Counted from the stretch's first letter, positions 2,689-42,200 are shown. The stretch is DNA of 64,000 bases from an uncultured bacterium (GCA_964562525.1 CAZLTL010000003.1:4115-68114), one strand, 5' to 3'. Program-made: numbers and translations. Notes: generated by a model from the letters alone, not told the origin.

Positions 2689-3184
2689 CCTGTTTTGTCC
2701 TTAAAAATAACCCGATCAAAAGTGGTTAAGCGTTTCCATTCAAGGCCCTTTGAAGCTAAGCCCGCCTACACAAAAGATGCGTCACTGGCTGTTGATTTAC
2801 AACACGCAGAATGAAGCAAGAATCTTCTTTAATTTTTTTATAAAGTGATGGGGCTCAGATGCCGCGCGGCTTTTATCCTCATCGGCGTATGGCCTTGCGC
2901 CTCCAGAGCCGGCGCTGGCTCCGCAAGCCTGTTTCGAAACGCTTGTTCCGGTTCATGATTCTGTCTCATTCGGCGAAGGAAGCCTTCCGCGGATGGAACG
3001 CGGCATTCCTTTCGCATCCTCGCAAGAATCATTCCCTTCACTGCACATGTTTCTCAACACGGCTTGCTGAAAAAAAAGACAGGGCAGACTCCAAAAGAAC
3101 ACATCAGGATGGAAAATGGAGAAAAAGAATTCCGAGAAGCTCCCGGAGTTGCGGAACGCATCTCCGTGAGTTGAGAAAACTGTA

Positions 3185-6100
3185 TTAAGCTGAAGTCATC
3201 ACACGGCGGGCTGCCGCGGAGAAAAGCTCCAGAACGGAAGATAAAAGGAAAATCCCCTCGCCTTTTCGGATCTGGAGATGCTGAATCCAGCGCGCAAAAC
3301 CTGTTGCCCATGCCGCTTCGATTTCATCCGTCCGCGTGGCGGCAAAAAAGGCCATCGCCTCCGGCACTAGTGCAAAGGAAACTTCGGTCGGCAAACTTTC
3401 AGCAGATAAGTTTCTCTGCCACGCCATACCTGCCAAAATTTCTCGCGCGCCAAACACACCATAATGATCGCGCCATTTAGCCGAGTTAAAAACATCGGTT
3501 GCCAACTGCCCCATAGCCTGAGGACCGTACATTTTAACTTGTTTGAGCTTGCCAAACTTCTTTTCAAAAGTGGCGCGCTCATAGTCGGTCCTGAAAACCA
3601 AAGCAAACCGATATTGCTTGGTACTTTGCCCCGGATACAACGTCTCAAATGATTTTTGAGTCAGCTCAATAAACTCGATCAGCTGAGATTCAATTTCAGG
3701 GGAGTAAAAAATAACCGGAGCCGTTTTTGGGATTTGCTTAGCGGCAATCGCATCTTTCCAACGAGTCAGAGCTTGCTGCCACAAAGCTTTTGCTTGCGGC
3801 GAAATTTGCCGCGCCTGCTGAACCAACCGAACCTCAATCGCCGTATCCGCCGCCATTTGCGCTTCAAGCCAATCCTGAAAACGAATTTCATCGTCACGCT
3901 CCTCGCTGTAAACAGGAGTCACCGCGTCTGAACCGATCCAAATCCCCAAATCTCGCGTTTCAGATCGGTGCACAGACCGAATCAATTCAACTAAGTCTTC
4001 GCGTGTTCCTTCTTCCTCCCACAATCGCTTAAGCTCATCGAGCTTTGCTCTAAAAGGATTCCAAACTTCAGTGCTGTTTAAATACATTTGTAACAAAAAA
4101 TACACCCCCAGCGTTTCGTATGGAATCGGTTTATCTTCAGACTCACCTGCATCATCTAAAAATATTTTTGAACTTTTATATTTTTCAAGATTCGCAGAAT
4201 TGCTGTCTGATTCAATCAACATTAATAAATCAAGTGTGCGCAAAACAATCGAACCATCACTAACAATCTCGTCGGGTGATAGCTCACGTTTGTACAAAAA
4301 CCCGATATCGTTACCAAAGCGATGCTCATTCATCCAACTGTTAAATGATATTTTAATTACAGACTCAGAAGCATCTTCAGTTTTCATCAGAGTAAATGCT
4401 TCTATACCAACCGTCATATCTTCCAACTCGCCAATAATGTGTTTTATCCGCCTCAGCTTATCTTGCAATCGCTGCCCATCTGCACGAGCTTCCGAGCGGC
4501 CGATATTAAAAATGTAGGTATTCGTTCCCGAGCCGTTAGGAAATGTCATCACACGCGGGTCGCCGAATTTTTCCTTGAGCATTTCAACATCAAGCTCACC
4601 TTTCATATCCGGCTGAGCGCCGTAGAGTACGAAATAGGATCCTGCCGGCGCATTTTCAATGCGTTCCAGCAATTGGCTGCGATGCTTCATATTCTCCAAA
4701 CCGGCCGAACCGCCCGCAAAATAATAATAAATCCGTTTTCGTTCAGGCTCGATTTTACCGTTGAGTGTAATTAAATTTATTCTCGAGGCATCCAAAAAAT
4801 TGCCGTTGATAGTCGCTATTTTTTCCGAAGCGTACTGTGATGATGCGCCAAAACCGATCCTTTGCCGTTCAAATTCGACGGTAAAACGATCAATTAGCAC
4901 TTTGCCGTCCGCAAACAAGGATTCATCCCCTTCGATTCCCACGGCTTTGTGCACGCCCAGATGCGCGGCAACAATCAAAGAAGTATTTAATCCGCTACCT
5001 AAATCGATGAAATCATGCTCGCCGGTTACGATGGGTTTCAAAGCCTGAATCACTTCGTCCATAGGCGAAGGAACAAAAATACCTGCCCACGTTTTTTTCC
5101 AAACAGATGGCAAACCGCCAAGTAAAATTTGATACTTCTGGGCCAAGATCGGCTTGGAGACATCTCTCAGCAAATCAAAAAACCATTGGTCATCCGCGCT
5201 GAGATTCATATCCCGCACCTGCCCTGAGTGCGTCGAACGGGTTTCAGAACGTTCATTTGACTCGGGGAATTGCAAACTAGAGTCAGGCTGATTAAATTCA
5301 GAATCGAATGCGCCGCCGGATCGATATAAATTTTTAATTTTTATAAAAAAAGAAATGCCTAGAGCTGTGAATCCAAAAACCGACATGGCCAACGGGATCA
5401 AACGCAGCCATGAAACTCCATTCAAAGTCAAAGAGAGAGCACTAACAACTACCCCAAAAAAACCAGATAACATCATCGGTATGCGCCAATCCATGAGCTC
5501 CGCCATCCAATCAATATTTTTTATATTTTGATTATTGGTTTGATTTAAGTCTGTGGCTTTTAACTCAACCCCGGCTATTGCTTCAACTATCTGTTCGACC
5601 ACTTGGACAACAGGGTTCAGAGGCCACATTCCGGTTATTTTTTCACCGCTAAAGTCACGATCTAATTCGGGCGCATAGGCTTCATCCAAAGCACTGCGCT
5701 CACGGGCAATTTCCGGAGTCATCGCATGAAAATACTCGTGGCCATATTCTTGTAAAGGAGTGTAGTCATGACTTGTATATCCCGTCTGCAAAGTGCGAAA
5801 CTTTGTGAGCACATCATAGTCACTGCCCTCTTCTCGAGCCTGCCCCCTGCGGAATACAAGCCCTATTTTTTCCGCATTCTCAGGTGATAAGCCAACGTAT
5901 CCTTTCTCAAAAAGCTCGTTGAATAAAGGACGTGCGCCAGGAGTTGCATCGATATCGCGATACATCGCATGCGATTCGAGTTGTCGTCCCGTTACATCAA
6001 CGTAAATAGGCTGAAGACCGGGATACTGAACAACCTGAACGACATGCCGAAGATAGCCCCCAAACACTAATGAAGCTCCGTGAATCGTTGATTTAATTTT

Positions 6101-9100
6101 TCCTGCGGATAACGAATAAAGACTGCGATGAAAACTAAGCGATGAAGACGTGCACCACCCCACCATAAAGTCTGCGGATAAATACAAAATGGGGTTACGA
6201 AATTGAATACCTGCAAGATGTGTCGCGGGATATTGATCCGAAGCCCACTTTCCATTATGAACACTCCAACTTGCCGTTTCGCCCATATAGGGCCCGGCAT
6301 GCTTCAATAGGGCCTCCCAAGATTCGTAAACCGCTTGCCGAATAATGACTTCAAGATCGTCTTGTGTCACTTTTGCGTCTGCTTCAAATAAACGAAAGAC
6401 GCGTTCAACCTCCGCAGCAGGCGGGGCCTCCACAATCGGCAGAGGTCCTTGTTTATTCATTTCGCTTAAGAGCGCAGTTTCTTCAGTTTCTGAAAGTTGA
6501 CGATCATTAATCCCCATGTATTTTTTGGGATGAACCGAAGTCCGTGTTTCGGAGCGTTGCAGCTTCACCGCGGAAATAACCCAATAATCTTTTTTGCTAT
6601 CGGTCAAATCGAACGAAATACTTTGGAAGCCGAAATCCGATAATGCGTCTTTAATTTCATCTTGGCTGTATTGACGATATTGAAACCCCTCAGCCAATTT
6701 GGATTCAGGCGGATAAGTCATGATAAAAATACTTCCGCCCGGTTTTAATACGCGCGAGGCATCTTGAACGGCACTTTTTAAATCTAAATGCCCGATGCTT
6801 TCGGGATAAATGACCGTGTCATAACTTTGCTTTTGAAACGGTAAAAGCTCCCCATGCGCGACAACCGTTATGATTTGACTTCGCACACCTTCACTCTGGT
6901 TGATAATTTGCAAAAATTCAGGCAGAACATCCGTCCCCGTCACTTCCGCCCCATACCGCCTAATCAAATCGCCTTCAAGCGCACCGATGCCGATTCCGAC
7001 AGAAAGAAGTTTTTTACCGCGGCTTCTTGCTCCTATCTGATCCGCCACATACTGTCTCAGCTTTGGATAACGAAGCAACGAACTCATATCTGCCCGAACA
7101 TAACCCGGATCAATGCGAGCAAAAGGCCCGTAAATTCTTTGGGTCTGCCGGACATTCTTTAAGATGCGTTTAACGTCAACGGCCCGTCCCGCCCTGGTTA
7201 ATTCTTCTGCGACTTCATGTGCAAAAGCTTCCGCGGGGCGGCCCAAAATATAAAGACGAACCGCGGCAGCGAGAATGACAGCGAGATAGTCTTTTTGTTC
7301 ACGCTTTTGGATGTGACGGCTCTCAAAAGCATTCATAACATCCTCTTTCAATCCGCGAAGATCTGAAAGCGTGTAACTCATACTCTCAACTTCTGTATAA
7401 ATCTCATCCAATTTCCCACGCATTTCGGAGCGGTTTAATTTCAAAACAAGGCTTTGCGGGTTTTCCGTCAGCTCAAATCCGAGGCGTTGCAACGGCACGG
7501 CAAAAACAGAACTCTGACGGGCTTCTTCGGCAGATAAATAGAAAAATAAATCTTCCGGCTTAGGATTAAAGTAAGTGCTGAAATAAATTTTTAAAAAATC
7601 AACTAAGCGGCGTCCATGCCCTTGACCACGGTAACCAGGTAACCCCGCTTCAGGTTCAAAAATTTGAAAGCGCAGCTGAAAGCTTTTTTCACCGATGCGG
7701 TTAAAAACAACATAACCAAGAATCGGAATATCTTGATCACCAAAAAGGATAATACCACCCAGATTGTCACGCCGACTCCAACGATAGAAACGGTTGTAGT
7801 TACGTTTACCGCTAACATCTGTTCCATGATCCCAAATAAAAGCGCGAGCATTGGTGTGAAGCACATCTTCATGATCAAGCGGTATGTCAGCCCCATCGCG
7901 AGCCATAGCAAGCCCGCGCCTTCCAAGCTCTTGAAGCAACTTTTGAAAAAATGCCTGTGATTCTTCAACACTAAAAAGATGGCTTTTAATTTCTGGGGCA
8001 CTCTCAGGTATGTGAGCTTGCGATGGCTTATTGAGAACTTCTTTTTTTAGAGCTGTCAAAGCGTAATAACCTACCGTTATTCCGATCAAGGCTATACTTG
8101 CAGCCACGATTGAAAGTGCCGAAGCTCCGCCCAAAATAAATATCAGTCCGACAACTGAGAGATTCACCCGCAAGTAAGTTTTAAGATCAAAACTGGGCTT
8201 TTGCGAATTCACCATATAGTTACGGAACAGCTGCATGAAAAGACCGAGGGTAAAAATAGTGGGTATGCGTAATAATTCCGGAACAATATCTTGTGCGATG
8301 TGATGCTGTGCTAGGAGCACGGGCAAACGCCCCCAAACACCTTTAAGATCTTTGCCCCACTGACTGCGAGTGGAATATGCGGCCTGAAGCTCGTCGATTT
8401 TATCCGGTGCCACATCTCCGCGTGTTTTTATTTCTGCCACACCGCGACGATTCCAATAGCCATTGAAGTAAACCGATATTAGGCTACTGAATGATACGCC
8501 GACAAAACCGCTGATTGCCGCGCGCAAAAGTGGCGAAGTAAATAAATCAACCCAATAAACATTGGCGGCAAATGCCACCACGCCCGTCAAAAATCGCACA
8601 CCCATAAATGCTGTAAAACGCTTTTTGACATGATATTGGTAAGCGGGATAATCACTGATCAGCTGCGTGTAATAATCTGCAATCGCCCCGGTCACAGAAG
8701 CGATCAAACCCGAAGCAACCAAGCTTCCCAACGCAAAATCGCCCCAGTAAAAAGAATTGATCCATGAGTAAAGGTTAAAGATAAAAGGAAAGCCAAAATA
8801 CCAGCTCGCAAGCTCAATCAATCCCCACGCCACCGCGCCTATCGCAATATGAAGATAAAACCGTTTTTTTGAAATTTGTTTATCAGAGGCAGCAACATCA
8901 GAGTATTGTTGATTAATCTTACGTACTTCAGAACGACTGACAACAATCACCTTCCAACCTTGATCATGCAAATAGCGCATTCCAGCAAGGTTATTGCGAC
9001 TCGCAACGACAGCGGTAAAAACATCATCATACTGAGATCGGTCGGGACCATTACGAAAAACCGTGGTAAAAGCAACATGAAATCCCTGCTCTAAAAGAAC

Positions 9101-12100
9101 CCGCACTGCGGCATAATTTTGATAATGATCGGACGCTACATAGACAAGCCCATCATCTTTCACAAGCTGTGCAGCCATCTCCGTAAAAACAGCCATATTC
9201 CCCGCTCTGGGGGTCGGCGAATTTACAGATACAAAATCCATCGAGCCCTTTCCGTGCTCCTTTAGAAATTCTTCATTGGTTGAATGGGCATCGTAATTTT
9301 CAGTTCCAAACATCTGAATTTGTAAGCCGGCTTTTGCAAAATAGGTTTGTGCTTGCGGTAAAAACCAACCCTCCCCCATCCCTAAATCAACGCCCTTTAA
9401 CTTTGGCCGCCCGTCAAATTGAGCCTTAATCAACCGCACAAAATCGGGAATAGGATTATTAATATCCGCCGACAATTCTCCTTCGGGCCACAGCATATCC
9501 ACACCCTCTTTAACTGTCGAAACAACGGTCGCAAAAGCATCCGTTGCTTTGGTTTCCTTCTCACCTCTTGCTTCAGAACGGTTCGCGGTCGTTCGCTGCT
9601 TCAGATCTTGAACGGGTAGAATCCAGTGCTGGGCCTTTGTTTTTTTAAGGAAAGCGTCAACGCGCTTATGGGTCACATCTTTGTGAGCGTGAATATCAAG
9701 AAAAAGCCGATCGGCTTCTTCTTTGTTGTCAGGTGGGTAATAACCGCGTGAAAGATTAAAAAGTACCCGTAAATAAAGATCCCCCAGACGAGATTTCGTG
9801 ATTTGGCTTTCCGCATCCACACGAATATGAATAGGGTTACGGCTGACCAGTCCCGCTAGCCAAGCGTTATACAAATCGTGCGTCTTAAATGCATATTTAC
9901 TGGTACTGTGGTCACGGTAAGCTTTAAAGACATTGAACGCAGCATTAATCGAGTGTGTTTTGATCCCATCTTTGTCCTTAAAAATTTGATAGATTGCATA
10001 AGCCACGGGCGTTCCGCGATCACTCGCATCTTTAAGATCAATCATATTGAAAAAAGTGACGCCGTAAACATTGCCCGGCAAAACAGGAACACTGACCATT
10101 TCCAACATTAACTTGCCGGGCTTAAGTGAATACAGGGTATGTCTTGCGTCTTTGGCGTTATCACGCATTGCGGTAAAATAGCTATGGTCAAAATAGTTTT
10201 CCATTTCAGGTGCCCCGCGCACCGCTTGCGCGAAACGCGTGACCTCCTGATGCGCTAATTCCTCGGCCAATGCATCGGACCGCACATTGGGCAAACTGCG
10301 AATTATTTTCAATCTCAGCGCGTCGGCCTGCTCTGATATTGTCATTTTGGATTTGGCAGCGCGAGCCTCAGAACGGCGGACAGGAATTCGAACTTTGACT
10401 TCGTTTACTAAGTTCTCAGGCAAGGGCTGAAAACCGCCCATTCGCATGAGATAGTTTCGACCGCTTAATCCTTCGATAAAAACCCGCTCGCCGTAGCGCT
10501 TTTGCTGATTGCGGTGAAATGCTTGCGCTTCTTCGGAAGGATCAACTTCAATCCATACCTCCGAGATACCTCTTTCCTTCATGTCAGAGAAAAAACGGTC
10601 GCGTAAACGGGTCGCTAACTTTAGGCCCTGCCGCCGCCACTTTTTAGCTACAAATAATCCGGTTGTGCGGACGCGCCCTGATGTTCCGCTCAAAAGACTA
10701 TCGTAAGCCTGCACCGCGGCCAATTCAGGCTTGCCATACTTGCCGGTTATTTTCCATTTAGAACTTACGTAAGCAATCCAGGCATAAGGCGGAATGCGCA
10801 CAGCCCATTCCTGCGAAAATTCAACGGCCTTTTGTTTTTCTTTCAAACTGAGGTCGGAATACTTTGCAAATGTAATTTTGTATTCATGATCCGCATTTTT
10901 CAAATCTGAATATGCCTGAAGTAATTTAAAAATCAACGCGCCCGCGGTAAAAACAACCGCAGCCGCGACAAAAGCAACCCCAAAGATAACGCCCCAAAAA
11001 GCGAATCCAAAAAAAGTTTTAAAAGCAAACCTGGCATCCTCCGTTTTATCGAGCCATTCGGGCTTATTTTTTTGTTGGATTAACTGCGGCCTGCTTTCAC
11101 CCTCACGCGCCTCCGAGCGCTGATAAATGCTGCGCGTCAATCCGGCAAGTTCCGAGACATTCACCTTAATTCCATCTCCCCAGCGAAAAGGCTTGATCGC
11201 GATATAGTTCGCTTTATGATTAGGAAAAGATTTCAATTCAACCAACGTTTCATCTCCGTTGGCTCTCTCAAATCCAATCTCATTCGGACCGTACCCGCGA
11301 AGATAAACAGCTTCCTCCTTTTGCCCATTCAAAAAAGCCTCCGGCTCAGAGCCATTGGTCGCCAAAGTAAACCACCCGCCCGTATAGGAAACACGCACAG
11401 ACTCAAAATGCTCTCGCATGACTCCGTCCGCATCCGCTTCGACCACAGCAAAACGAAACTCGCGCCCATCTCCCGTCCCTTGAAAAAAACGATCCGGAAG
11501 CATAAGCTCGAAATCACGCGGAATCAAAACTGCATCTTGATTTTTAGCTCCAAATTCCGAAAGAGTTTCAGCAAGGGAAACCGCATCGAACTTACTCGGG
11601 CGAACGGAAAGCTGTAAATCTTCAAAACGCCAAAGACGCGATTCCGAACGCCGCAAGGCGGGGCTGCGGATCTCTTCCCATGTAAGATTGCTTCGATTAA
11701 GAAAATCTTGAATTTCTTGAACAGCTTGATCGAGCCCCTGATTCATGGCTGCAGTTAATTCGGGTCGAACCCGTTCGCGAACTTGACGGCGATGATCTCC
11801 GTCGCGTGCTGCAACCAACGCGTTGAGTGCGTACTCCAGACGAAGCCATTTTTGGGCGGGCACGGTTCGCATTCGAGCAAAATACTTTTCGACGCTTAAA
11901 TGCTTTTCATCCGCATAAATATCTTTGAGATGAATGGTTGAAATCAAACTGTCCACCGCTTCTACATTTTCGTGAAAATCATCGACCAGTAGCGCATGGT
12001 CTTTGGCGATACCTGCAGATTCAAGATGCTTTTGAATAGCTTTCAGCTTTTCTATGCCCGCCCCATCCGTAAAAAGCCAATCCGTAATAGCACCTTCCCC

Positions 12101-15100
12101 GAAAATAGCCGTGGTCGTAGCAATAGTTTCCGGGCGAATTTTTTGGGGCCGCGCAGTCACAGCAACGATACGAACACCCTTTTTCCGCAGCTCTTGGTAA
12201 AAACCAATATCTAAATCAGATGCAGGTTCAAAATAACCGTTCTTTTTCATCCAAGCATGCATCTTATCCACAAACGGAAAGACAAGCCGGGCCGCCATGC
12301 TTCGCGCATTTTTTTCACCACTAAACTTTTCGGTAAGCTTTTGAATTAAAGACTGAATTTGCCCTTCGGAGCCATGCCATCCCCTTGTGCTAAAAGTCGT
12401 ATTGTCCAAATCAACATAAAGCACATCCAGCTGCTTGGCATTTGCTGCGCGCAAAAGCATGGCCTCAATCTCCTGCCATGACCGCGCTTCAAAGTGACGC
12501 CCGGCAAAAGGGCCTTTCCAACCGACCTTTAACTTCTCCCGCGCTTCGGAACGTTTATCCGTTGATTCCGGCTTTCGGATAATAAAAAAATCAAATAAAT
12601 CCGGGCTCAAAAATAAAGGTTCATCCCTCATCGCCTGCGGACGTTCTTTTCCATTAAGCGCAAAAACAGAGGGCTCCGCCTGAAGAGACTGTCTCAGATT
12701 TGAAAAATCGGTTACATTCGCCTTCCGCAGCTGATCAGGCGTCCACCATCCGCTGCTTTCAAGCGGTTGCCGGCTCCGCGTTTTAAAGCTTCCGTCACGG
12801 ATCGAAGCGAAGTACTTAAAAGAATCATCCCGAACGGGCAGCAAATAATGCCCGCGTGGCTGCCACCCCCGCGCCTTTTTGAATTCACTCGCAGCCCCGG
12901 GCTTAGGACGAAAAACAACTAAATCGCCCGCACGAATTTCATGCAAGTCTTGATTCAAACGGTATCGGAGCCCATTCACATTTTCAAAAATCTTAGCCAC
13001 AGCGTAATCAGCCAGTTTTTCCCCGCCTAAATACTGATTTAAAAACTCTAGCTGCTTGCGATTCAAGTTAATCTTAACTTGCGGCTCACGCCCCGGTTCC
13101 GGTCCGTCCAAAACAAACCGAGACTCGGAGCGGCGGATCGGATAACCGGAAACAATATGAAAATTAAGATCGGAAATCTTCGCCGGATCAACTTGTCCGC
13201 GGACAAAAACATACCGATCCATATGCCGTATTTTTCCGATATTGTTTTCTACCCCGCGATCCGTAATCACCATGACATTATTTGTCAGCGGATCGAAACG
13301 CACTCTCCTCCCAATTAATTCGGATTTGTCATAATCTAAATCTTGATCATCGACATCCGCGAGGATCCATCGATCGCCGTCTTTTTCATGTTTAAACTTA
13401 ACCTTTCGTATTCCTTCAAACGGCATGAAAAAAGCATCTTGAGCTGACGCGAAAACAAGACCGGGAGAGTGAAACTTATCAACAACATCCTCCCAGCTCC
13501 GGCCTCTGAAATCATTCAAATTAAAACCCTGCTTTTGGTCATACTCCAATTCCAAAGAAAATGCATCCCGGCCGATCCAAAAATCCCTGACATTTTTCCA
13601 ATGAAGAGGAATCAGCCTCTTGACCGGAAGACTTATAATTTCCGAAAAATTTAACCCGCGTGAATATTTTTCAAAAATTAAAAGCAACGGATAAACTCTT
13701 GTAATATCAATTTCAAAATGGCCCTGCTGATCGAAACCAACCGCTCCTATTAAAAATCGCAAAACAGCCCCGCCCACACCTCGTTTTCGATTGAGTTCAT
13801 AAACGGGGTCGGCCCATGTACCGGAGGGATAAACATCATGAAACTCATATACTTTTTTATCCCCCTCATCGCGTACATTGATGCTGACGGCACCGCCAAA
13901 TTCTTCCCATTGCTGGAAAATTCCTTGAAAATAAGGGTAAGTGATTTTTGCTCGAAATGACTGCCCGGTTATAGCATCCATGCGTCCAGGCACAATCGTC
14001 ACAATGACCGATGCTTGCGTGCGAGGAATTTTTACTTCGGCAACCAGCGGCGCATCTCCCTCGCGGGCTTGGTTGAGATACTCATTAACTTCACGTAATT
14101 CCGAACGCCTTACCTCCCGAATATGCCCAGCATGAATATTGGCGACAGTTTTGAGCGCTTCAAAACCTCGGTTAACGGACTGCGCGGCAAAGGTGGAGGC
14201 GGCAACCGAATCGAACCAAGCAATCGGAACTTGTGCAATTTGTTTTTTATTGAGAGCCGCAAGTAAAAGTAATTCGGAGTCAAAGGAAAAACTAAAATCA
14301 CGCGCCACAGGCAAAATCGCACGCAAGGTTTCAGGAGAAAATATTTTGAAACCAGCTTGGGTATCGCGAATATTTGAAATCGGCGAAAGCAGTAAGCGAA
14401 TAGCCCAGTTGTACATCAAGCTTGAAATGAGAGCCTGCCAATTGCGTCCTTCCGTGTACGATCCTTTTCCGCGGCGAACGCCAATCGCGGCTCCGTTCAA
14501 AACTGTTTCAGCCATCGGTTTAATTAAAAGCCCGGTTAAAAGCAAGTTGGCCGAAATATCCATGTCGGTATAACCAATGTAATGTTTTCCGCGCGGTCGG
14601 ATGCTATTGAGAGCTGCGTTTAAGCCTAAATGCACAGCCCCGCCCTTCGGCCCCCTTTTCACACTGGGTGCTAATCTTAAAATTTGAACTTGCTGCGGAT
14701 CCAGTTTTGATGACCGGCGCAAACGTTTTAACAAACTGACCGTTTCCAAATCAGGAGAACCATCATCCACAAAAACCATCCGCCAATGAAACTGCGGATT
14801 GATTTCACGCAACATTTGGAGCTGTTCAAACTTCACTCGAAAGGCATCTTCTCCGGCAGGATAACGCGCTGATGGCCGGTGCAAACGCTCAATTTCATTG
14901 TAAGCGGGAATTCCCCAGGTAACCGTAACATCCTGTGTAAGCCCGCGAATCACATCCATCGACTCATCGATTTTCTTTTGCTCAATGCCCTTCGCATCGC
15001 GGCCGCGCAAAGTAAAATCATCGCTTCGCGTTTCAGACCGCATAACGTTTCGCCCAGACTTCAATTCTGCCGATTGATGAGAGGGCTCTTGATCGCGGAG

Positions 15101-17371
15101 CTTTATTTCACGCGCAGTGTTTTCAACTTCATACCGATGACTAACAAAAAAATCGTACAGCTCAGCTACGGAACTTAAAGCACGTCCCATCCAATAAACT
15201 CCAATACCAAAAACTGCCGCAATGGTACCAGCAACGAAACCTTGTCTAAAATGTTCAAACCTGTCGTCAAAGAGAAATAGAAATCCAATACCCATAAACG
15301 CGCTGAAACTTAGAGCAAATACTTTCTGCATTCCAACCCAATAAATTCGGTATTCACGCGGAAGAAGAACCAGATTCTTTTGAATCCATGCATCTAGCCC
15401 CTTGCTCACTAAAGACTCAAAAAGAAAACTTGAACGGATCCACTTCCAAGCTCGAATAATTTTCTTCTCTTTCTCCGCAAAGAAATGATCTCTTGCAACT
15501 GTCTGAACAGCTTGATCCCAAACCCCTTCAGTTATGGTGGATGCACCCATCGGATTTGCAATCTTTCTCACGGCATCAACTGGTTGAACCAGTAAGTTAA
15601 CAGGAAGGGCTTGATCCATCGGGATGAGAAATGGACTTTGAGTCATTGCTTGAGATACAGCTTGAGCCGTTGTCGGCGACTTTAAATGACTCCGCCATTG
15701 GTAGCGAAATCTTTGTCTCGTAGGCTCCGACATAAAATCTGCCAGCCAACCATGAAGAGGCTCGGCAATTTTAACCGCTTGATTAAGCTTCTTAAGATCA
15801 GCAAGCCGCAAAATAAGCCGCTTGCGCCAATTTAAAAGCAAATCGTAAACCTGACCGGGATGATCTTTTGCATAAGCCTGAAGTAAATAGCTCCAATAAG
15901 CTTTTTGAAGATTAACTTGCCCATTTACAGCTTTCATTTGCGATCGCCAGCCTATGTTTCCCTGCATTAATTCCACATAGCGGTCAGCCCCTTCCAAAGA
16001 ATCAATACTCGGCGTGATAACCGCAAAATTCCAACCCTGCTTTTGGGCGATTTGCTCAAGCCCTTGCTTGTGAAAGCCCCCCGAGACAAACACCACCGTT
16101 TCCGATGAGCGAAAGCTGGCAGCGATATGTTTCTGCATTTTCTCTTCACGCTTAAACTGAACCGCGTAAAAATCCTTAAATGACTGCCAATCAGGGCTCT
16201 CAAGATTCATTCTCTTCACTGTCTGCCAATCGGACAAACTCAACTCCATTCGAACCAACTTCTCAAGCAAGCGAATCCGCAAAGTTTGTTTAAGTAAAAG
16301 ATGTTGCGCGGATTTTGTAAAGTAAGTTGAAAGTTTCTGTATCAAAAACCCTTGATACTCAGCTGCAAGCTCAGCTGTTTTAATTTCTTGCCATTCACGC
16401 TCCGAGCGCAATGCAAAATGATAAAGCCGCTTCTCCAATGCGTTCACTTTATTAAATAAGTCGGCAGGCAAAAGCTGTTCTAATTTTTGTGCGGATTGCG
16501 TAACAGATAGTCGCCCTGTCTGGACGTCTTTTTGCAGGGCCAATAATGCCAAACGCTCCGCTGGACCCGCAACCTGTTTGGCCAACGACCCAAGACACCG
16601 CTGCCAAAACTGAACTATCGCCGGGCGTTTTAAATGATTTTGAATTTGAACCTGACGGCGAACGGCTTCTAAGTGAGGAAAGTGCTCTGCGAATGATTCA
16701 TCCGGAAACTGCAGAATAAGCGGCAGCGCCTCGAACGAGTCTTCGGAAATAAATCTGTCCCATTTCAGAGCTTCTGTAGAATAACTTTTCTGCTTGGATT
16801 TCGAAATAATTTCACGCGCACGCTCGAGCCTAACTAAAACAGACTCCTGTTTTTTTATCGCGCTTTGATAAAGTTCTACAGCCCTATAATAAAGTTCCTT
16901 AGACTCCGCGGCTTGCGGCATAAGCAAATCAGATAAAATTAAAGCTGCGGCACCCCCGCTAATGTTTTGAGCCACAACATCTGCTTCGATTTTTTTTCGC
17001 AGCCAATCACGATCAGGAAAACTATGCTCTAACGCCAAGTGTGACGACTCATTTAAACCTTCCAAGTGCAAGGCAAAAGCACCGTAACGCGCACGAATAT
17101 CTTCAATCAGTTTCCAAATCGATTTTTGTGCCGAAGAAACAGCGTGCGCGTCCTCAATCACCAGAAGCGTTTTACCTGACTCTCCATGCTTGCGATTCTG
17201 AATCCGCCCCCATTTTTCTGAAAGCTGCAGTTTGTTAATTTGAATGGCAGATTCAGAAACAACAGTCGCAAGGCGCGGAGCCGCTTGTGCGTCGGAAGAC
17301 AAGAACCCCGATAATTGCAAAGCAATTAACAGCACTGCCACCGCTTTTTTAAAAACGTTCTTTTTCGCCAT
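3185..17371 (-). CDS. Giant multidomain secreted/membrane protein 1 (4728 aa). Order: signal peptide, TraB/GumN-like N-domain, TM pairs, GT2, HAD, GNAT, SAM-MTases, punctuated by recurrent RSExR motif
   Basis: Uninterrupted 14.2 kb ORF. N-terminal MAKKNVFKKAVAVLLIALQLSGFLSSDAQAAP signal peptide. Recognisable catalytic motifs across the whole length (see domain features). Opposite-strand ORFs inside are short shadow ORFs. Confidence 0.85.
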   Translation of the reverse strand: MAKKNVFKKAVAVLLIALQLSGFLSSDAQAAPRLATVVSESAIQINKLQLSEKWGRIQNRKHGESGKTLLVIEDAHAVSSAQKSIWKLIEDIRARYGAFALHLEGLNESSHLALEHSFPDRDWLRKKIEADVVAQNISGGAAALILSDLLMPQAAESKELYYRAVELYQSAIKKQESVLVRLERAREIISKSKQKSYSTEALKWDRFISEDSFEALPLILQFPDESFAEHFPHLEAVRRQVQIQNHLKRPAIVQFWQRCLGSLAKQVAGPAERLALLALQKDVQTGRLSVTQSAQKLEQLLPADLFNKVNALEKRLYHFALRSEREWQEIKTAELAAEYQGFLIQKLSTYFTKSAQHLLLKQTLRIRLLEKLVRMELSLSDWQTVKRMNLESPDWQSFKDFYAVQFKREEKMQKHIAASFRSSETVVFVSGGFHKQGLEQIAQKQGWNFAVITPSIDSLEGADRYVELMQGNIGWRSQMKAVNGQVNLQKAYWSYLLQAYAKDHPGQVYDLLLNWRKRLILRLADLKKLNQAVKIAEPLHGWLADFMSEPTRQRFRYQWRSHLKSPTTAQAVSQAMTQSPFLIPMDQALPVNLLVQPVDAVRKIANPMGASTITEGVWDQAVQTVARDHFFAEKEKKIIRAWKWIRSSFLFESLVSKGLDAWIQKNLVLLPREYRIYWVGMQKVFALSFSAFMGIGFLFLFDDRFEHFRQGFVAGTIAAVFGIGVYWMGRALSSVAELYDFFVSHRYEVENTAREIKLRDQEPSHQSAELKSGRNVMRSETRSDDFTLRGRDAKGIEQKKIDESMDVIRGLTQDVTVTWGIPAYNEIERLHRPSARYPAGEDAFRVKFEQLQMLREINPQFHWRMVFVDDGSPDLETVSLLKRLRRSSKLDPQQVQILRLAPSVKRGPKGGAVHLGLNAALNSIRPRGKHYIGYTDMDISANLLLTGLLIKPMAETVLNGAAIGVRRGKGSYTEGRNWQALISSLMYNWAIRLLLSPISNIRDTQAGFKIFSPETLRAILPVARDFSFSFDSELLLLAALNKKQIAQVPIAWFDSVAASTFAAQSVNRGFEALKTVANIHAGHIREVRRSELREVNEYLNQAREGDAPLVAEVKIPRTQASVIVTIVPGRMDAITGQSFRAKITYPYFQGIFQQWEEFGGAVSINVRDEGDKKVYEFHDVYPSGTWADPVYELNRKRGVGGAVLRFLIGAVGFDQQGHFEIDITRVYPLLLIFEKYSRGLNFSEIISLPVKRLIPLHWKNVRDFWIGRDAFSLELEYDQKQGFNLNDFRGRSWEDVVDKFHSPGLVFASAQDAFFMPFEGIRKVKFKHEKDGDRWILADVDDQDLDYDKSELIGRRVRFDPLTNNVMVITDRGVENNIGKIRHMDRYVFVRGQVDPAKISDLNFHIVSGYPIRRSESRFVLDGPEPGREPQVKINLNRKQLEFLNQYLGGEKLADYAVAKIFENVNGLRYRLNQDLHEIRAGDLVVFRPKPGAASEFKKARGWQPRGHYLLPVRDDSFKYFASIRDGSFKTRSRQPLESSGWWTPDQLRKANVTDFSNLRQSLQAEPSVFALNGKERPQAMRDEPLFLSPDLFDFFIIRKPESTDKRSEAREKLKVGWKGPFAGRHFEARSWQEIEAMLLRAANAKQLDVLYVDLDNTTFSTRGWHGSEGQIQSLIQKLTEKFSGEKNARSMAARLVFPFVDKMHAWMKKNGYFEPASDLDIGFYQELRKKGVRIVAVTARPQKIRPETIATTTAIFGEGAITDWLFTDGAGIEKLKAIQKHLESAGIAKDHALLVDDFHENVEAVDSLISTIHLKDIYADEKHLSVEKYFARMRTVPAQKWLRLEYALNALVAARDGDHRRQVRERVRPELTAAMNQGLDQAVQEIQDFLNRSNLTWEEIRSPALRRSESRLWRFEDLQLSVRPSKFDAVSLAETLSEFGAKNQDAVLIPRDFELMLPDRFFQGTGDGREFRFAVVEADADGVMREHFESVRVSYTGGWFTLATNGSEPEAFLNGQKEEAVYLRGYGPNEIGFERANGDETLVELKSFPNHKANYIAIKPFRWGDGIKVNVSELAGLTRSIYQRSEAREGESRPQLIQQKNKPEWLDKTEDARFAFKTFFGFAFWGVIFGVAFVAAAVVFTAGALIFKLLQAYSDLKNADHEYKITFAKYSDLSLKEKQKAVEFSQEWAVRIPPYAWIAYVSSKWKITGKYGKPELAAVQAYDSLLSGTSGRVRTTGLFVAKKWRRQGLKLATRLRDRFFSDMKERGISEVWIEVDPSEEAQAFHRNQQKRYGERVFIEGLSGRNYLMRMGGFQPLPENLVNEVKVRIPVRRSEARAAKSKMTISEQADALRLKIIRSLPNVRSDALAEELAHQEVTRFAQAVRGAPEMENYFDHSYFTAMRDNAKDARHTLYSLKPGKLMLEMVSVPVLPGNVYGVTFFNMIDLKDASDRGTPVAYAIYQIFKDKDGIKTHSINAAFNVFKAYRDHSTSKYAFKTHDLYNAWLAGLVSRNPIHIRVDAESQITKSRLGDLYLRVLFNLSRGYYPPDNKEEADRLFLDIHAHKDVTHKRVDAFLKKTKAQHWILPVQDLKQRTTANRSEARGEKETKATDAFATVVSTVKEGVDMLWPEGELSADINNPIPDFVRLIKAQFDGRPKLKGVDLGMGEGWFLPQAQTYFAKAGLQIQMFGTENYDAHSTNEEFLKEHGKGSMDFVSVNSPTPRAGNMAVFTEMAAQLVKDDGLVYVASDHYQNYAAVRVLLEQGFHVAFTTVFRNGPDRSQYDDVFTAVVASRNNLAGMRYLHDQGWKVIVVSRSEVRKINQQYSDVAASDKQISKKRFYLHIAIGAVAWGLIELASWYFGFPFIFNLYSWINSFYWGDFALGSLVASGLIASVTGAIADYYTQLISDYPAYQYHVKKRFTAFMGVRFLTGVVAFAANVYWVDLFTSPLLRAAISGFVGVSFSSLISVYFNGYWNRRGVAEIKTRGDVAPDKIDELQAAYSTRSQWGKDLKGVWGRLPVLLAQHHIAQDIVPELLRIPTIFTLGLFMQLFRNYMVNSQKPSFDLKTYLRVNLSVVGLIFILGGASALSIVAASIALIGITVGYYALTALKKEVLNKPSQAHIPESAPEIKSHLFSVEESQAFFQKLLQELGRRGLAMARDGADIPLDHEDVLHTNARAFIWDHGTDVSGKRNYNRFYRWSRRDNLGGIILFGDQDIPILGYVVFNRIGEKSFQLRFQIFEPEAGLPGYRGQGHGRRLVDFLKIYFSTYFNPKPEDLFFYLSAEEARQSSVFAVPLQRLGFELTENPQSLVLKLNRSEMRGKLDEIYTEVESMSYTLSDLRGLKEDVMNAFESRHIQKREQKDYLAVILAAAVRLYILGRPAEAFAHEVAEELTRAGRAVDVKRILKNVRQTQRIYGPFARIDPGYVRADMSSLLRYPKLRQYVADQIGARSRGKKLLSVGIGIGALEGDLIRRYGAEVTGTDVLPEFLQIINQSEGVRSQIITVVAHGELLPFQKQSYDTVIYPESIGHLDLKSAVQDASRVLKPGGSIFIMTYPPESKLAEGFQYRQYSQDEIKDALSDFGFQSISFDLTDSKKDYWVISAVKLQRSETRTSVHPKKYMGINDRQLSETEETALLSEMNKQGPLPIVEAPPAAEVERVFRLFEADAKVTQDDLEVIIRQAVYESWEALLKHAGPYMGETASWSVHNGKWASDQYPATHLAGIQFRNPILYLSADFMVGWCTSSSLSFHRSLYSLSAGKIKSTIHGASLVFGGYLRHVVQVVQYPGLQPIYVDVTGRQLESHAMYRDIDATPGARPLFNELFEKGYVGLSPENAEKIGLVFRRGQAREEGSDYDVLTKFRTLQTGYTSHDYTPLQEYGHEYFHAMTPEIARERSALDEAYAPELDRDFSGEKITGMWPLNPVVQVVEQIVEAIAGVELKATDLNQTNNQNIKNIDWMAELMDWRIPMMLSGFFGVVVSALSLTLNGVSWLRLIPLAMSVFGFTALGISFFIKIKNLYRSGGAFDSEFNQPDSSLQFPESNERSETRSTHSGQVRDMNLSADDQWFFDLLRDVSKPILAQKYQILLGGLPSVWKKTWAGIFVPSPMDEVIQALKPIVTGEHDFIDLGSGLNTSLIVAAHLGVHKAVGIEGDESLFADGKVLIDRFTVEFERQRIGFGASSQYASEKIATINGNFLDASRINLITLNGKIEPERKRIYYYFAGGSAGLENMKHRSQLLERIENAPAGSYFVLYGAQPDMKGELDVEMLKEKFGDPRVMTFPNGSGTNTYIFNIGRSEARADGQRLQDKLRRIKHIIGELEDMTVGIEAFTLMKTEDASESVIKISFNSWMNEHRFGNDIGFLYKRELSPDEIVSDGSIVLRTLDLLMLIESDSNSANLEKYKSSKIFLDDAGESEDKPIPYETLGVYFLLQMYLNSTEVWNPFRAKLDELKRLWEEEGTREDLVELIRSVHRSETRDLGIWIGSDAVTPVYSEERDDEIRFQDWLEAQMAADTAIEVRLVQQARQISPQAKALWQQALTRWKDAIAAKQIPKTAPVIFYSPEIESQLIEFIELTQKSFETLYPGQSTKQYRFALVFRTDYERATFEKKFGKLKQVKMYGPQAMGQLATDVFNSAKWRDHYGVFGAREILAGMAWQRNLSAESLPTEVSFALVPEAMAFFAATRTDEIEAAWATGFARWIQHLQIRKGEGIFLLSSVLELFSAAARRVMTSA
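6700..7110 (-). other. Class I SAM-dependent methyltransferase-like domain inside giant protein 1 (approximate coordinates)
   Basis: LSVGIGIGALEGDL (motif I-like), DTVIYPESIGHL, LKPGGSIFIMTY (post-III motif). Confidence 0.5.
11820..12430 (-). other. HAD-superfamily phosphatase-like domain inside giant protein 1 (approximate coordinates)
   Basis: Motif I VLYVDLDNTTF (DxDxT), motif II VAVTAR, motif IV LLVDDFHENVEAV. Verified on minus strand near 12395-12430. Confidence 0.55.
14190..14970 (-). other. Family-2 glycosyltransferase (DPM1/GtrB-like) domain inside giant protein 1 (approximate coordinates)
   Basis: IPAYNE, VFVDDGSPD, GPKGGAVHLG, YTDMD (DxD), DTQAGFKIF. This is the canonical GT2 motif order. 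Confidence 0.7.
15960..17190 (-). other. N-terminal domain of giant protein 1, paralogous to the N-domain of giant protein 2; possibly TraB/GumN/Tiki-like (approximate coordinates)
   Basis: LLVIEDAHAVSSAQKSIWKLIEDIRARYGAFALHLEG ... VVFVSGGFHKQGL in protein 1. The counterpart in protein 2 is VILIQDAHAIPDAQKNIHALIRHFEKKYGVKNVALEG ... VILVAGGFHTQGM. The two His-containing motifs (xxAH / GGFH) resemble TraB/GumN GxxH motifs. Confidence 0.35.
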
Positions 17372-17570
17372 ACGTCTTTCGGATTTGAATCAGCCAAACC
17401 ACTTTAAACAAGCCATTTATAAAGACCTTAGAAATCGATTATTGCTAAAAATTAACATACTCCTCCGTGAATACAAATTGGACGAAAATTTAGCTTGGCG
17501 TTAGGGCAAGATGATCAGCCTTGCTATATCCTGCTTCCCCCGTCTCAGATACGGGATCTGGGATGGGGGT

Positions 17571-38734: not shown

Positions 38735-39274
38735 ATGACTCAAAAACGCGCAGCCACAATAAGTCTCCTGAGCCTGTTTTCTTACCTGCTTGTGGCTTGC
38801 GCCTCAAAACAACCGCTGCCGCCATCGGGTGACGCACCTTACTTTAATTGGATTCAGCCATCTACCCCCGAATCCTCTTTGACGGGAAAAGCGTATTTCT
38901 GGCCTGCTCCAAGCGGCGAGAGTGTCCGAATAAAAATCATGCTGACGGGCGCGGTTCCGGAAAAAGAGTATTTTGCCCATATTCATGAAAAAGGCGGTTG
39001 CGCGGATGAAGCCCAGGCCGCGGGAAAAATTTACAGGCCGACGGGTTCTTTTCTGGGGTTTGAGACAAAACAGTCCGGGCTATTGGCTAAAATCGAATCC
39101 AACGCTGATGGTACGGCAGAATTTGAGGGAGAATTCAAAAGGTTTTCGCTTGCGAACGGCAAAAATAATATCGCCGGAAAATCGATTGTCATCAGCGGCG
39201 ACGAAACCACATTGACCCGCGCCGGGTGTACCGTCATTCCCGTTCCAAAGCGCGAGGGCAAATCCGCGGATTAA
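38735..39274 (+). CDS. Lipoprotein with Cu,Zn-superoxide-dismutase-like fold but incomplete metal ligands
   Basis: Lipobox LLVAC. AHIHEKGGCADEAQAAGKIYRPTGS and NADGTAEFEG...IAGKSIVISGDETT parallel SodC blocks (FHVHE.G.C..AG.HFNP ; ADG.A ; GRSLVIHAGGDD), but the His63/71/80/120 equivalents are absent. Stop overlaps the stop of giant gene 2 by 4 nt (convergent). Confidence 0.5.
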   Translation: MTQKRAATISLLSLFSYLLVACASKQPLPPSGDAPYFNWIQPSTPESSLTGKAYFWPAPSGESVRIKIMLTGAVPEKEYFAHIHEKGGCADEAQAAGKIYRPTGSFLGFETKQSGLLAKIESNADGTAEFEGEFKRFSLANGKNNIAGKSIVISGDETTLTRAGCTVIPVPKREGKSAD

Positions 39275-42200
39275 GCCGCCGCCTGAATCTGCTTCGTCGC
39301 GGCATATTCTTGAGCCAGACGCATCAAGACATTCATCGAAACCGCAAGCCTTCCATCCTTAAAAGTCAAAGCCTGCACGATGTTCTGAAAATACCCGGCG
39401 TCCGCAAGCAGCATGGGAATATTATTCATCTGATCACGGCTTTTTACTTTACCTGACAGCAAAATCGCCACAAGCATCCGCATCAACACATCCGCTTTTT
39501 GGCGCTGAACATCGTTAAAATCAGCAAAGCCGTCTTCATCAGAAATCAAATCGACGATACTTTCGCTTTTTTGCGACGCGCCTTCTCCGCCAGCGCTAAA
39601 AATCGACAATAAAACGGGAGCTCCCTTTTTAACTGCGCTCACCAAAGAATTCACGCGCCTTACCATCGTTGCGGGAACTTTTAAATTCGCCATTGTTTTA
39701 GGCAGCACAAACCGCACTCCATCTCCAAACGCAAACTCTTGAATGGCTTGCTGCAAAGCAATCTCAAGCTCCGGAGCATCCAAAGCAATTTCCACTTCTG
39801 ACTTTGAATTCTGTAAAAGGACATCCGCAAAAAACAACTCCAGGTTTTGAATTTGTTTGGTCTGATTACCCTCCCAACTCGCCACCATTTCATCGCGCAG
39901 CTTTTGAACCGCCGCCAAATACTCATCAAATCCAACCCTTTCAGCATCGCTCACAACTTGCCGTGCTTGCGAATCAGCTTGCTGTGGACTTAAAGCCAAA
40001 ACTTCAGCCTGAAAGACACCTAATAACCTAGGTGCCGATTCAACTTCTTCAACAACTTTACGACTTTCCGATCGGCTTACGATCGCCCTCTCTGCAGAAA
40101 CTTCCCGCGATTCAGAACGAGCAAGTTCAAAGCCGGTATTCAAACGAGAGAAACTTGTAAATGAATTCGGTAAATCACCCTCAAAATGAACTCTCTCCTG
40201 CTCTTCATCAACTCGATCAATAACATAAGTTTTGCCATTCATGATATTTTTTACGCTATCGCCAACTCTCCATTTTGGCAGCTTGCCTTTAACAGCAACG
40301 TCGGGCTCTTTAACATAAATCCAACCCTCTCTAAAATCAGCGTAATTAGGTTGATTTTTACTCACGAGAGCCTCATTAAAATTAAATCCTTGCATATCAC
40401 GGAAAGCAACTCTTTTATATCCAGGAATATTGCCCTCATCTTTTAAGGTCACGATAACGTTCGACTTGAAAGGGATGGCTTGAATAGGAACATTCGTCCT
40501 GAGTGCCGCTTTTCTCAAGTACGCGCTAAATCCTTCATAAACATTCCGGCTATTGGCAACTGAATCAGAATCAATTTTTGTCTGCTCATAAATGATTGTT
40601 CTTTTCTTTGAATTGCCCGCAGAACCATCTGATGACCAAACAAAATCAATATAATCAAAATCACTATTTTCACCTCTTGCCGGATCCCCTTTTCGAGGAG
40701 CTTGAATTTGCTCGGCACCAAGCGCCTCGAGCTGCCAGGTGATTGCCGCCAAATTGCTTCCGACGGCTGCAAGAAGCTCGGTATTGATGTATCCATTTGT
40801 TGCCAAGGATGCCATGAATATCTCTTTTAAAGAATCCGGCGGATTGTCACGATCCGGTTGTTTCGGAGTAAGAGGAAGAATATCCCGAATATGAACCACT
40901 TCAGCATCGAATAAAATCAGCGGAGTAATGGCATCGGCGCCGCCGTAATCATACCCGACCCGACTCGTATCGAACCCATTTTCTCGAATCCATTTTTGAA
41001 CAATCAAAGAGGCATCAACCAATTTTCGGGTCATGGTCCGATTTTTGACTAAGTTTCTATAATTTGACAACCCTTCAACTTTAAAATCACCCTTTGCGGC
41101 GGAATCGATTAAAGGCCATAAATGCTCTTGAACGCCCTCGGGTAGCAGCAGATAACGACGCTCCGTAAAATAATGCACTCGAAGCATCTCTTCGAGCAAA
41201 AGTTCCCTGTCTGCAGCATTTAAAGGGCTGAGGCTGATAAAGTTTTCATACAGCTGATGCATGCTCGTGAGTCTCAGTTTCTGGCCGCGCTGAGCAATTA
41301 AACTTTGTAAACCAAAAATAACACTAAAATCTTGTTCACTAAGAACCCCCTCTAAAGCGCTAATTAAAAGCGGCCAACTTTTTTCGAAGTTAAATTTTCC
41401 GTCATGAACACTTTGACCCGAAACTTGCCCAAAAACATACATAGCACGCATAAAGTTTTTGAGAGATTCATCTATTTTCATACGATTAATTTCCTCAACA
41501 GCAATTTTTATTTTAACAACCGCTGAGCTAACAACATACTGAGGGGCTTGTTTTTCAATTTGCTTCTCAAAAAAATCAACGCCATGCATCACATTAACCA
41601 TGCGCGCAACCTGAATAGCTGCCCGGTCAAAATCCAAAGTAATCACAAAAGAATCATCGCTCAATGATCGCGCCATCGCTTTCCAATTTTCAAAAATTTC
41701 TCGCTTACCAAAACGATTCAGCATCGACTCAAAAAAATCTTGTTTTTTAAGAATCTCCTCAAACAGCTTTTTGTAAAGAGCTCTCTGTTCACTTACGTCT
41801 TTAAACTTTTCTTGCAAATCAGCATGCTGAATAATTTTATCCGCGACCAAAACAACTTCTTCAAACACCTCCGCCATTCGCATTTCACTTCTATCAGAAG
41901 CAGACTCACTAGCCTTGCCTTGCATGTTTAATTCAACTTTTTTTGAATCTTTATTACTGCGCGGAATCCAAATACCATAGCGCAAGGGCCGCCCTTTTCT
42001 CTCTTCTACTTCAAAGTACACCGCGTCATGATTTGTTAATTTTCCCTTCGTTGCTTTTTCTCGCAAAGCGTCCCTAACCTGAGTTGCTTTTTTGACACCA
42101 TCAAAGTCAAGCAGCACACCCTCCTTAGTCGAACCGGCCGGAATATCATCCGTGAAAGCAAACAAAGCTTGGGGCCAATTAACATCAATGGCATCCATCA

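Follow-up and report, generated by a model that had tools for sequence, protein, structure and literature searches.

A conserved N-terminal cassette, probably a divergent TIKI-superfamily domain, heads two giant open reading frames and a large family of Omnitrophota proteins

The stretch of DNA analysed here, a 64,000-nucleotide (64-kb) bacterial chromosomal segment from an uncultured bacterium (GCA_964562525.1 CAZLTL010000003.1:4115-68114; hereafter the window), contains two giant open reading frames (ORFs), A and B, that sit amid the ordinary housekeeping genes of a diderm bacterium. Each opens with a signal-peptide-like N-terminus followed by a conserved N-terminal cassette, or head, as listed below with positions in amino acids (aa). 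Cassette boundaries are from BLASTP and a family hidden Markov model (HMM).

3185..17371, minus strand: giant ORF A, 4728 aa, 2 Cys; identical to database protein P0002
17282..17371, minus strand: A aa 1-30, signal-peptide-like N-terminus, MAKKNVFKK-AVAVLLIALQL-SGFLSSDAQA/A (sequence by eye; Kyte-Doolittle peak aa 6-24)
15680..17254, minus strand: A aa 40-564, conserved N-terminal cassette (family HMM envelope)
39271..57807, minus strand: giant ORF B, 6178 aa, 3 Cys
57712..57807, minus strand: B aa 1-32, signal-peptide-like N-terminus, MRMKQFFLVK-MTAWALSLFMLLSS-IGDGGVLYA/A (sequence by eye, hydropathy)
55996..57681, minus strand: B aa 43-604, conserved N-terminal cassette

Both N-termini display a K/R-rich n-region, approximately 12 hydrophobic residues and a small-residue c-region, as judged by eye and by hydropathy, and may act as a signal anchor instead of a cleavable signal peptide.

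An earlier note on this DNA had proposed that the two giants share an N-terminal domain of common origin with divergent content downstream, on the basis of four peptides. All four were found, at aa 69-105 and 425-455 of A and aa 73-109 and 457-487 of B; the interval that it gave, 15960-17190, corresponds to aa 61-471 of ORF A, with its counterpart in B at ~56338-57591. BLASTP of the N-terminal ~630 aa of each protein yields one high-scoring segment pair (A43-525 / B46-553, 28% identity, 522 columns, E 5e-41), which bears out the common origin of the cassette in both genes. When the full-length proteins are compared, the cassette pair is the only match (E 3.6e-38; nothing else at E<=1e-3); the shared region is therefore limited to the N-terminal cassette, and the bodies are unrelated, in line with the divergent content that the note had described. 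A family HMM scan of the six frames of the window detects exactly two cassette copies, one per giant ORF. The possibility that this similarity reflects chance, low complexity, a recent duplication or an assembly repeat can be dismissed with near certainty: an E-value of 5e-41 was obtained over 522 columns of ordinary composition, at 28% identity neither a recent copy nor a collapsed repeat is tenable, the two genes have separate syntenic counterparts in another genome, and thousands of independent homologues exist. Because identity is only 28% and the two genes have separate syntenic counterparts in the closest relative, UBA2337 (locus L001 for A, L008 for B), the sequences indicate that the two heads are old paralogues and not the product of a recent duplication.

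The cassette extends far beyond these two genes. A two-sequence profile was used for an exhaustive search of 1.84 billion cluster representatives, of which 7,516 match at E<=1e-3, a number that falls to 5,644 with E<=1e-10. The 150 best matches listed all cover the whole profile and begin within about the first 100 residues of proteins that reach 7,984 aa, many of the 150 being contig-truncated. No second cassette was found in any one of these 150 proteins, and a K/R plus hydrophobic segment precedes the cassette in 119 of them by a simple rule. At 60 of 60 genomic loci the cassette likewise follows a hydrophobic N-terminus and opens an ORF of 1.6 to >3.9 thousand residues (kaa), most of these ORFs running past the fetched DNA. 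Almost all labelled metagenome-assembled genomes (MAGs) hosting the family are Candidatus Omnitrophota, and weaker members come from Elusimicrobiota-labelled MAGs and from Ca. Theseobacter exili (Auribacterota, PVC group). Copies per MAG, given as pattern-limited lower bounds, range from 2 to 5, with at least 5 in SO_2016_GW1_117 and at least 3 in each of five MAGs, UBA2337 among them. Homology breaks off sharply where the cassette ends: over the next 600 aa, BLASTP significantly matches the median member to 0 of 133 others, and the bodies are unrelated.

Neither Pfam nor NCBIfam holds a model for the cassette, the named members are all entered as 'hypothetical protein', and no precomputed Pfam domain lies on the N-terminus. 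A word-index homologue search with the first 560 aa of A returned nothing, which reflects a limit of the word index, given that the exhaustive profile search finds thousands. The two-gene paralogy proposed earlier is thus real, but its scope was drawn too narrowly, the cassette heading a family of thousands. The N-terminal regions of Omnitrophota giants have been described as generally without domains that can be identified, C39/S8 peptidases near signal peptides excepted (10.1101/2023.11.21.568195). The cassette is absent from the accounts in two published Omnitrophota giant-protein surveys, whose cut-offs are >=10 kaa or >=30 kaa, and the family is seen here on proteins of ~1.5-8 kaa, below those cut-offs. 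It is a previously unannotated, very large domain family of Omnitrophota giants, and probably a variant of a known enzyme fold in a known protein class.

The anatomy of the cassette was derived from family alignments and from AlphaFold2 models of A aa 1-560 (predicted local distance difference test, pLDDT, 79.6; predicted TM-score, pTM, 0.65) and B aa 40-540 (pLDDT 85.9, pTM 0.78).

16901..17209, minus strand: A aa 55-157, N-lobe of the alpha/beta core; strands 55-61, 68-73, 100-103, 151-154 (model A, alignment)
16112..16900, minus strand: A aa 158-420, insertion of ~260 aa, helical throughout, with lower conservation than the core (model A)
15914..16111, minus strand: A aa 421-486, C-lobe of the core; strand 425-430 then G431-G-F-H434, strand 448-454 ending at P454 (model, alignment)
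15680..15913, minus strand: A aa 487-564, conserved C-terminal helical extension (W515-R516, L-A-D), after which family homology ends
57568-57576, minus strand: B invariants D78-A-H80
57484-57486, minus strand: B invariant E108
57325-57327, minus strand: B invariant E161
56500-56502, minus strand: B invariant R436
56410-56421, minus strand: B invariants G463-G-F-H466

The two models concur on this layout, with core strands, a helical insertion at ~158-420, strands 425-430/448-454 and a helical extension to ~560. The core lobes are conserved at 2.7 and 2.5 bits per column and the insertion at 2.0. In the N-lobe of A, the invariants D74-A-H76, E104 and E156 all lie at the C-terminal ends of strands; the last helix of the insertion (aa 393-419) carries invariant Y402 and R408, and further C-lobe invariants are Y465 and M469. 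Across 152 sequences with ~25% overall identity, D74 is retained in 151/152, H76, E104 and E156 in 152/152, and R408 and H434 in 151/151, while G431, G432 and M469 are also invariant or nearly so. Each invariant polar residue sits at a C-terminal strand end, or in the helix preceding a strand, in both models, and such a placement would correspond to the usual active-site location in Rossmann-like folds.

As a side observation on the helical insertion, sub-threshold Pfam matches to PAH_ZNF598 (paired amphipathic helix) occur in 11 of 53 members at E 0.0012-0.14 (e.g. P0285 aa 333-378, P0294 aa 333-379), and Foldseek matches of model B include the alpha-pore-forming toxins AhlB, SmhB, YaxB and ClyA with TM-scores of ~0.1. 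Both are probably generic long-helix similarity.

The invariant residues recall the TIKI superfamily, a group made up of Tiki, TraB/PrgY/GumN, ChaN, the erythromycin esterases together with BcR135/136, HopBA1, PMT C1/C2 and RRSP. Its defining trait is a parallel-sheet core, to which active members add a 2His/2Glu set and a conserved Arg (PMC6254334, PMC7979712). Catalytic residues are E47, H50, E78, R261 and H289 in EreC (PMC7979712), and the corresponding sets are E3900-x-H3902, E3930, R4001 and H4030 in RRSP and H85 and E113 in BcR135 (PMC6254334). The cassette displays the same order, D74-A-H76, E104, R408 and H434 in A and D78-A-H80, E108, R436 and H466 in B, and the His-to-Glu spacing of 28 found in EreC, RRSP and BcR135 recurs between residues 76 and 104 of A and between 80 and 108 of B. 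Furthermore, the Ere/BcR135 enzymes possess an inserted helical minor lobe (PMC7979712), and the helical insertion of the cassette falls between the same landmarks. A Foldseek search with model A against 350,542 PDB chains places HopBA1 (5T09) at the top with probability 0.89, and BcR135 (2RAD/3B55) and ChaN (2G5G) within the top 8. TIKI entries thus make up 4 of the top 8, all of them in the TIKI-fold set of PMC6254334 and each with an E-value of 0.1 or worse; by a rough estimate, such an enrichment would be very unlikely to arise by chance. When 53 members were scanned against Pfam at E<=1, TraB_PrgY_gumN was recovered in 5/53 (best E 0.0032), Cofac_haem_bdg/ChaN in 5/53 and Erythro_esteras in 2/53. 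The C-lobe aligns with ChaN profile positions ~146-212 in the same register each time, at E 3.4e-5 (P0286), 1e-3 (P0291), 0.016-0.019 (A) and 0.1 (P0294). We consider the cassette to be probably, though by no means certainly, a divergent member of the TIKI / TraB-PrgY-GumN / ChaN / erythromycin-esterase superfamily. The TraB/GumN/Tiki affinity guessed in the earlier note is probably right at that level, whereas placement in the TraB/PrgY/GumN family proper is not supported.

A number of results weigh against this assignment, and no single test of TIKI membership is significant. All Foldseek E-values are >0.01, and the better model, that of B, gave helical-bundle matches only, with no TIKI fold among the 50 matches listed. 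No sequence match attains a curated threshold, the highest score being the 24.4 bits of the distant member P0286 with Cofac_haem_bdg, for which the cut-off is 27.7. PDB sequence searches with A2, A4, the core-only A5 and P0286, by profile and single sequence, returned noise only, and family consensus sequences were uninformative against Pfam. Alignment by hhalign of the family (full, core-only and as separate lobes) with YbaP/TraB alignments gave probabilities of 0.6-6%, although this is a weak test given that the target alignment is shallow (effective number of sequences, Neff, ~2; only close enterobacterial relatives). Finally, the first motif is D-A-H (Q/E-D-A-H) and has no counterpart to the Gly of the TraB/Tiki G-x-x-H, so that of the two G-x-x-H motifs that define PF01963 only the second, G431-G-F-H434, is present.

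These results would suit a separate fold family, in which an alpha/beta core with a helical domain forms a conserved enzyme head of unrelated chemistry and the TIKI likeness is convergent or coincidental; the additional invariant set E156/Y161/Y402, which has no stated TIKI counterpart, points the same way. We regard this alternative as unlikely. The recurrent weak matches include three Pfam families of one superfamily (ChaN, TraB/PrgY/GumN and erythromycin esterase), four TIKI-fold entries rank in the top 8 PDB chains, and both the His-to-Glu spacing and the subsequent Arg ... His order are those of the superfamily (PMC6254334, PMC7979712). A ChaN-like periplasmic haem- or metal-binding domain, supplying cofactor to the giant protein, could likewise be envisaged, as the most frequent and best Pfam matches are to Cofac_haem_bdg/ChaN and ChaN is an exported protein, described as a haem-transport protein in PMC7979712. 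However, these matches span only the C-lobe common to the whole superfamily, and the cassette retains the complete His/Glu/Arg/His set of hydrolytic members (PMC6254334), making a role of this kind very improbable.

Comparison of the cassette with individual TIKI families reveals both shared and distinctive features. The erythromycin esterases EreA/B/C with BcR135/BcR136 (PF05139) show, like the cassette, acid-x(1-2)-His, a Glu at +28, an Arg and a His ~26-30 residues after it; they have a parallel-sheet core interrupted by an all-helical lobe, an arrangement that is predicted for the cassette, and BcR135 is among the top Foldseek matches of model A. The Ere enzymes are small and stand alone, whereas the cassette is predicted to be exported and is fused to the N-terminus of proteins of several thousand residues; it also has a much longer helical insertion (~260 aa), an extra C-terminal helical extension and no significant sequence match to Ere. 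TraB/PrgY/GumN proteins (PF01963: E. coli YbaP, Enterococcus PrgY) and Tiki share the C-lobe pattern R-[DNE]-x-x-[MFW] ... strand-G-x-x-H-x-x-G, the YbaP C-lobe reading ...QRNLAWRDKL...VVAVGALHLYGEG. PrgY and Tiki are extracytoplasmic and membrane-tethered. Unlike the cassette, the TraB/PrgY/GumN proteins are 250-500 aa long, do not head giant proteins and carry G-x-x-H, not D-A-H, as first motif. ChaN (PF04187) provides the best and most reproducible sequence signal, confined to the C-lobe, together with the 2G5G match, and is exported as the cassette is predicted to be; it is a haem binder, whereas in the cassette no residue of the hydrolase-type set is missing, and the ChaN match lies below the gathering threshold. 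A TIKI-fold domain within a very large, secreted, modular multi-effector protein has a precedent in RRSP of the MARTX toxins and in PMT C1/C2, RRSP possessing a catalytic 2His/2Glu plus Arg set (PMC6254334). In contrast to the cassette, RRSP is an internal cargo effector for host cells and not a universal N-terminal head, and no sequence similarity between the two was found.

Behind the heads, the bodies of A and B contain several enzyme domains and candidate transmembrane (TM) helices, the latter from Kyte-Doolittle scans.

Within 3185..17371, minus strand: ORF A body Pfam domains, HAD-like aa 1639-1752; GNAT 2232-2287; S-adenosylmethionine (SAM) methyltransferase (Methyltransf_11) 3437-3568
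15266..15322, minus strand: A aa 684-702, candidate TM helix, first strongly hydrophobic segment past the cassette
Within 39271..57807, minus strand: ORF B body Pfam domains (full-length numbering), Methyltransf_28 ~aa 2463-2712; GlnD-type nucleotidyltransferase ~3398-3520; ACT ~3915-3968 and ~4786
51589..51645, minus strand: B aa 2055-2073, candidate single TM helix; no other strong hydrophobic segment follows the signal peptide

Other candidate TM segments of A, from Kyte-Doolittle only, are at aa 2129-2147, 2879-2897, 3073-3091, 3964-3982 and 3992-4010. The recognisable cofactor-dependent enzyme domains of B all lie C-terminal to its candidate TM segment, and hydropathy suggests, for both A and B, a topology with the cassette outside and at least part of the body inside. 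With several enzyme Pfams, a signal-like start and hydrophobic segments, A and B fit the Omnitrophota multi-enzyme giants (class 1 / Pfam 'Module 1', Nielsen & Lui 2026), while at 4.7 and 6.2 kaa being shorter than the 10 kaa cut-off of that survey. Cysteine accounts for 2/4728 aa of A and 3/6178 aa of B (0.04-0.05%) compared to 0.76% in 22 neighbouring ORFs. Family-wide (P0001-P0150) the content is 358/489,038 aa (0.073%), with one quarter of these residues in the first 40 positions, and 45 of the 76 family proteins longer than 3000 aa have two Cys or fewer. The giant proteins are depleted in Cys approximately tenfold, which would be consistent with export.

Comparison with UBA2337 indicates that the giant genes evolve differently from their surroundings. 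UBA2337 proteins flanking the giants are 82-91% identical to those of the window, the stretch compared around A being 3185-25590 against L001. Giant A and its UBA2337 counterpart share 53% identity in the head, 32% over aa 1414-1632 and 79% over aa 2810-3318, the rest being unalignable. Between A and P0004, a 700-aa block is 93% identical and displaced by ~860 residues, while B and P0001 share blocks of ~80%, one block of 27%, and gaps. The giant genes thus diverge far faster than their surroundings, and do so patchily. Because this mosaic divergence is accompanied by a sharp head/body junction, the sequence pattern looks like module exchange. The UBA2337 counterpart of A (L001 9412-13116) ends at 1234 aa, with later homologous segments (15639-16289 and 18684-20237) in another frame, as would result from a frameshift, from splitting of the gene or from faulty assembly; a version 4761 aa long (P0003) is present in the protein database.

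Since one head is kept in front of unrelated and mosaic bodies, its job is expected to be generic to the family. In the mechanism that we propose, given here with the best-supported step first, the N-terminal signal sequence would start Sec export and the cassette would fold outside the cytoplasmic membrane as a Rossmann-like parallel-sheet core split by the ~260-aa helical insertion, analogous to the Ere minor lobe. The His/Glu/Arg/His set would then activate water, as has been proposed for Ere and RRSP, and a peptide or ester bond would be hydrolysed on the outer side of the cytoplasmic membrane. In a final step the head might process or release the giant polypeptide, or supply an activity, common to the family, that acts at the cell surface on the envelope of a host or prey. 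Catalytic activity of the cassette is inferred from the invariance of the set and by analogy with these enzymes, and its role, whether as a maturation or processing device or as a shared surface activity, is speculative. On balance, a TIKI-superfamily hydrolase acting as head module behind a Sec-type signal, and heading cysteine-depleted Omnitrophota giants with unrelated bodies, has in our view roughly even odds of being correct. Two further points tell against it: the SAM methyltransferase, GNAT and nucleotidyltransferase domains of the bodies need cytoplasmic cofactors, and hydropathy is the sole source for the signal peptide and the topology.

Self-cleavage into smaller polypeptides has been proposed for the N-terminal C39 and S8 peptidase domains of other Omnitrophota giants (West-Roberts et al. 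2023, 10.1101/2023.11.21.568195). Like the cassette, those domains place a putative hydrolase beside the signal peptide of an Omnitrophota giant, while their fold and family are unrelated to it. A further resemblance is to polymorphic toxins and effectors, whose architecture consists of a constant N-terminal module, a sharp junction and exchangeable C-terminal content. As in polymorphic toxins, the cassette family has several paralogues per genome and shows mosaic divergence between close relatives; unlike polymorphic toxins, the bodies comprise thousands of residues of metabolic and regulatory enzyme domains in place of a short toxin tip, and neither an immunity-like gene nor a dedicated secretion partner is linked to family members at the 60 loci searched. 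Extended to the phylum, the comparison would imply a 'polymorphic' giant-protein system in which an active TIKI-like head, analogous to MARTX autoprocessing domains or to the trafficking domains of polymorphic toxins, is recombined onto thousands of exchangeable multi-enzyme bodies and, in an export-coupled maturation, cleaves or releases the body at the cell surface. This broader proposal is offered as a long shot.

The position of the cassette, which invariably follows the signal sequence directly at the very N-terminus, in front of bodies that vary freely, also accommodates a non-catalytic head for targeting or anchoring, recognised by an export or surface-assembly machine (e.g. a type II secretion system (T2SS) or pilus) or serving as an envelope tether, with the polar residues used for binding. 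Polymorphic toxins have their trafficking domains laid out in this way. The DNA separating the two giants contains T2SS-related genes (27864-29242, ExeA/GspA-like AAA_22 and T2SSB/T2SSC-like ORFs), T2SS/pilus genes have been reported near Omnitrophota giant genes in surveys (10.1101/2023.11.21.568195; 10.64898/2026.06.07.730766), and some TIKI-fold proteins, such as PMT C1/C2 and ChaN, are not hydrolases (PMC6254334, PMC7979712). Nevertheless, near-absolute invariance of Asp/His/Glu/Glu/Arg/His at ~25% identity has the look of an active site, and the non-catalytic PMT has lost the 2His/2Glu motif (PMC6254334). In addition, no partner gene is conserved around the 60 loci, where recurrent neighbours are the housekeeping genes of one syntenic subgroup (SNF symporter, transaldolase/PGI, amidase-LysM). 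A purely targeting or anchoring function is thus doubtful, and an extracytoplasmic hydrolase, possibly for processing, remains the concrete hypothesis that the head affords.

Giant proteins are a signature oddity of Omnitrophota, and published surveys describe them as nearly all sequence-unique, with N-terminal regions mostly devoid of identifiable domains. One sharply bounded head in >7,500 protein clusters offers a way to classify many of the mid-sized (~1.5-8 kaa) giants. The head also makes a small (~500 aa) soluble target that could be expressed and assayed, with obvious point-mutant controls. Cys depletion and mosaic divergence point to export and rapid module exchange, both relevant to the predatory or episymbiotic use that has been proposed for these giants.

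The heptamer AAAGACG, reported by the earlier note upstream of both giants, is present but at different offsets, -8 in A and -15 in B, and occurs 8 times per strand of the window against ~3.9 expected. As a regulatory motif it was rejected, given the unequal spacing, its frequency in the window and its partial conservation in counterpart loci. Both starts do lack an obvious Shine-Dalgarno sequence, but this is uninformative: only 9 of 24 window ORFs carry any such motif under lenient patterns, so its absence is the genomic norm. Similar start contexts are not borne out as a meaningful feature, as upstream alignment pairs A with L001 only and B with L008 only. The intergenic region between uvrC and giant A (17372-17570) is ~85% identical to UBA2337 L001 9212-9411, a conservation not above that of the adjacent uvrC coding sequence (87%), and an Rfam search of the region upstream of A gave no match. 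A hairpin, CCCGTATCTGAGACGGG, lies just past the uvrC stop and differs at two positions in L001, CCCGTATCTGGGATGGG.

Elsewhere in the family, about 11 loci (L023, L025, L029, L031, L032, L035, L037, L039, L041, L044, L045) carry a near-identical purine-rich leader, AAAGAAGGCACATAAAAT-ATG. These loci also have common upstream neighbours, with an SNF-family symporter immediately upstream, transaldolase/PGI and amidase-LysM, and evidently represent one orthologous giant gene kept across species.

Nearly all genes of the window lie on the minus strand, the sole credible plus-strand gene being a Cu/Zn superoxide dismutase at 38603-39274 (+), and GC skew is negative throughout. Neighbouring genes include UvrC, MurJ, HolA, LptE, a BamD/TPR protein, ComEC, LeuRS, SurE, Sua5 and MTHFR. 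Between the giants, an AAA_22 ATPase, a T2SSB/T2SSC-like ORF, ComEC and a GH35/GH42 beta-galactosidase-like gene are found (27864-29242, 26308-27786 and 29309-31339); glycosidase and secretion genes near Omnitrophota giant genes are reported in published surveys. A 172-aa ORF at 37982-38500 joins a bactofilin domain to an HTH_17 DNA-binding domain at the C-terminus. Two minus-strand tRNA pairs, Leu-CAA with Ala-GGC and Glu-TTC with Lys-TTT, are located at 34315-34640 and 59041-59396, the Glu-TTC/Lys-TTT pair lying past Sua5, ~1.2-1.6 kb upstream of giant gene B.

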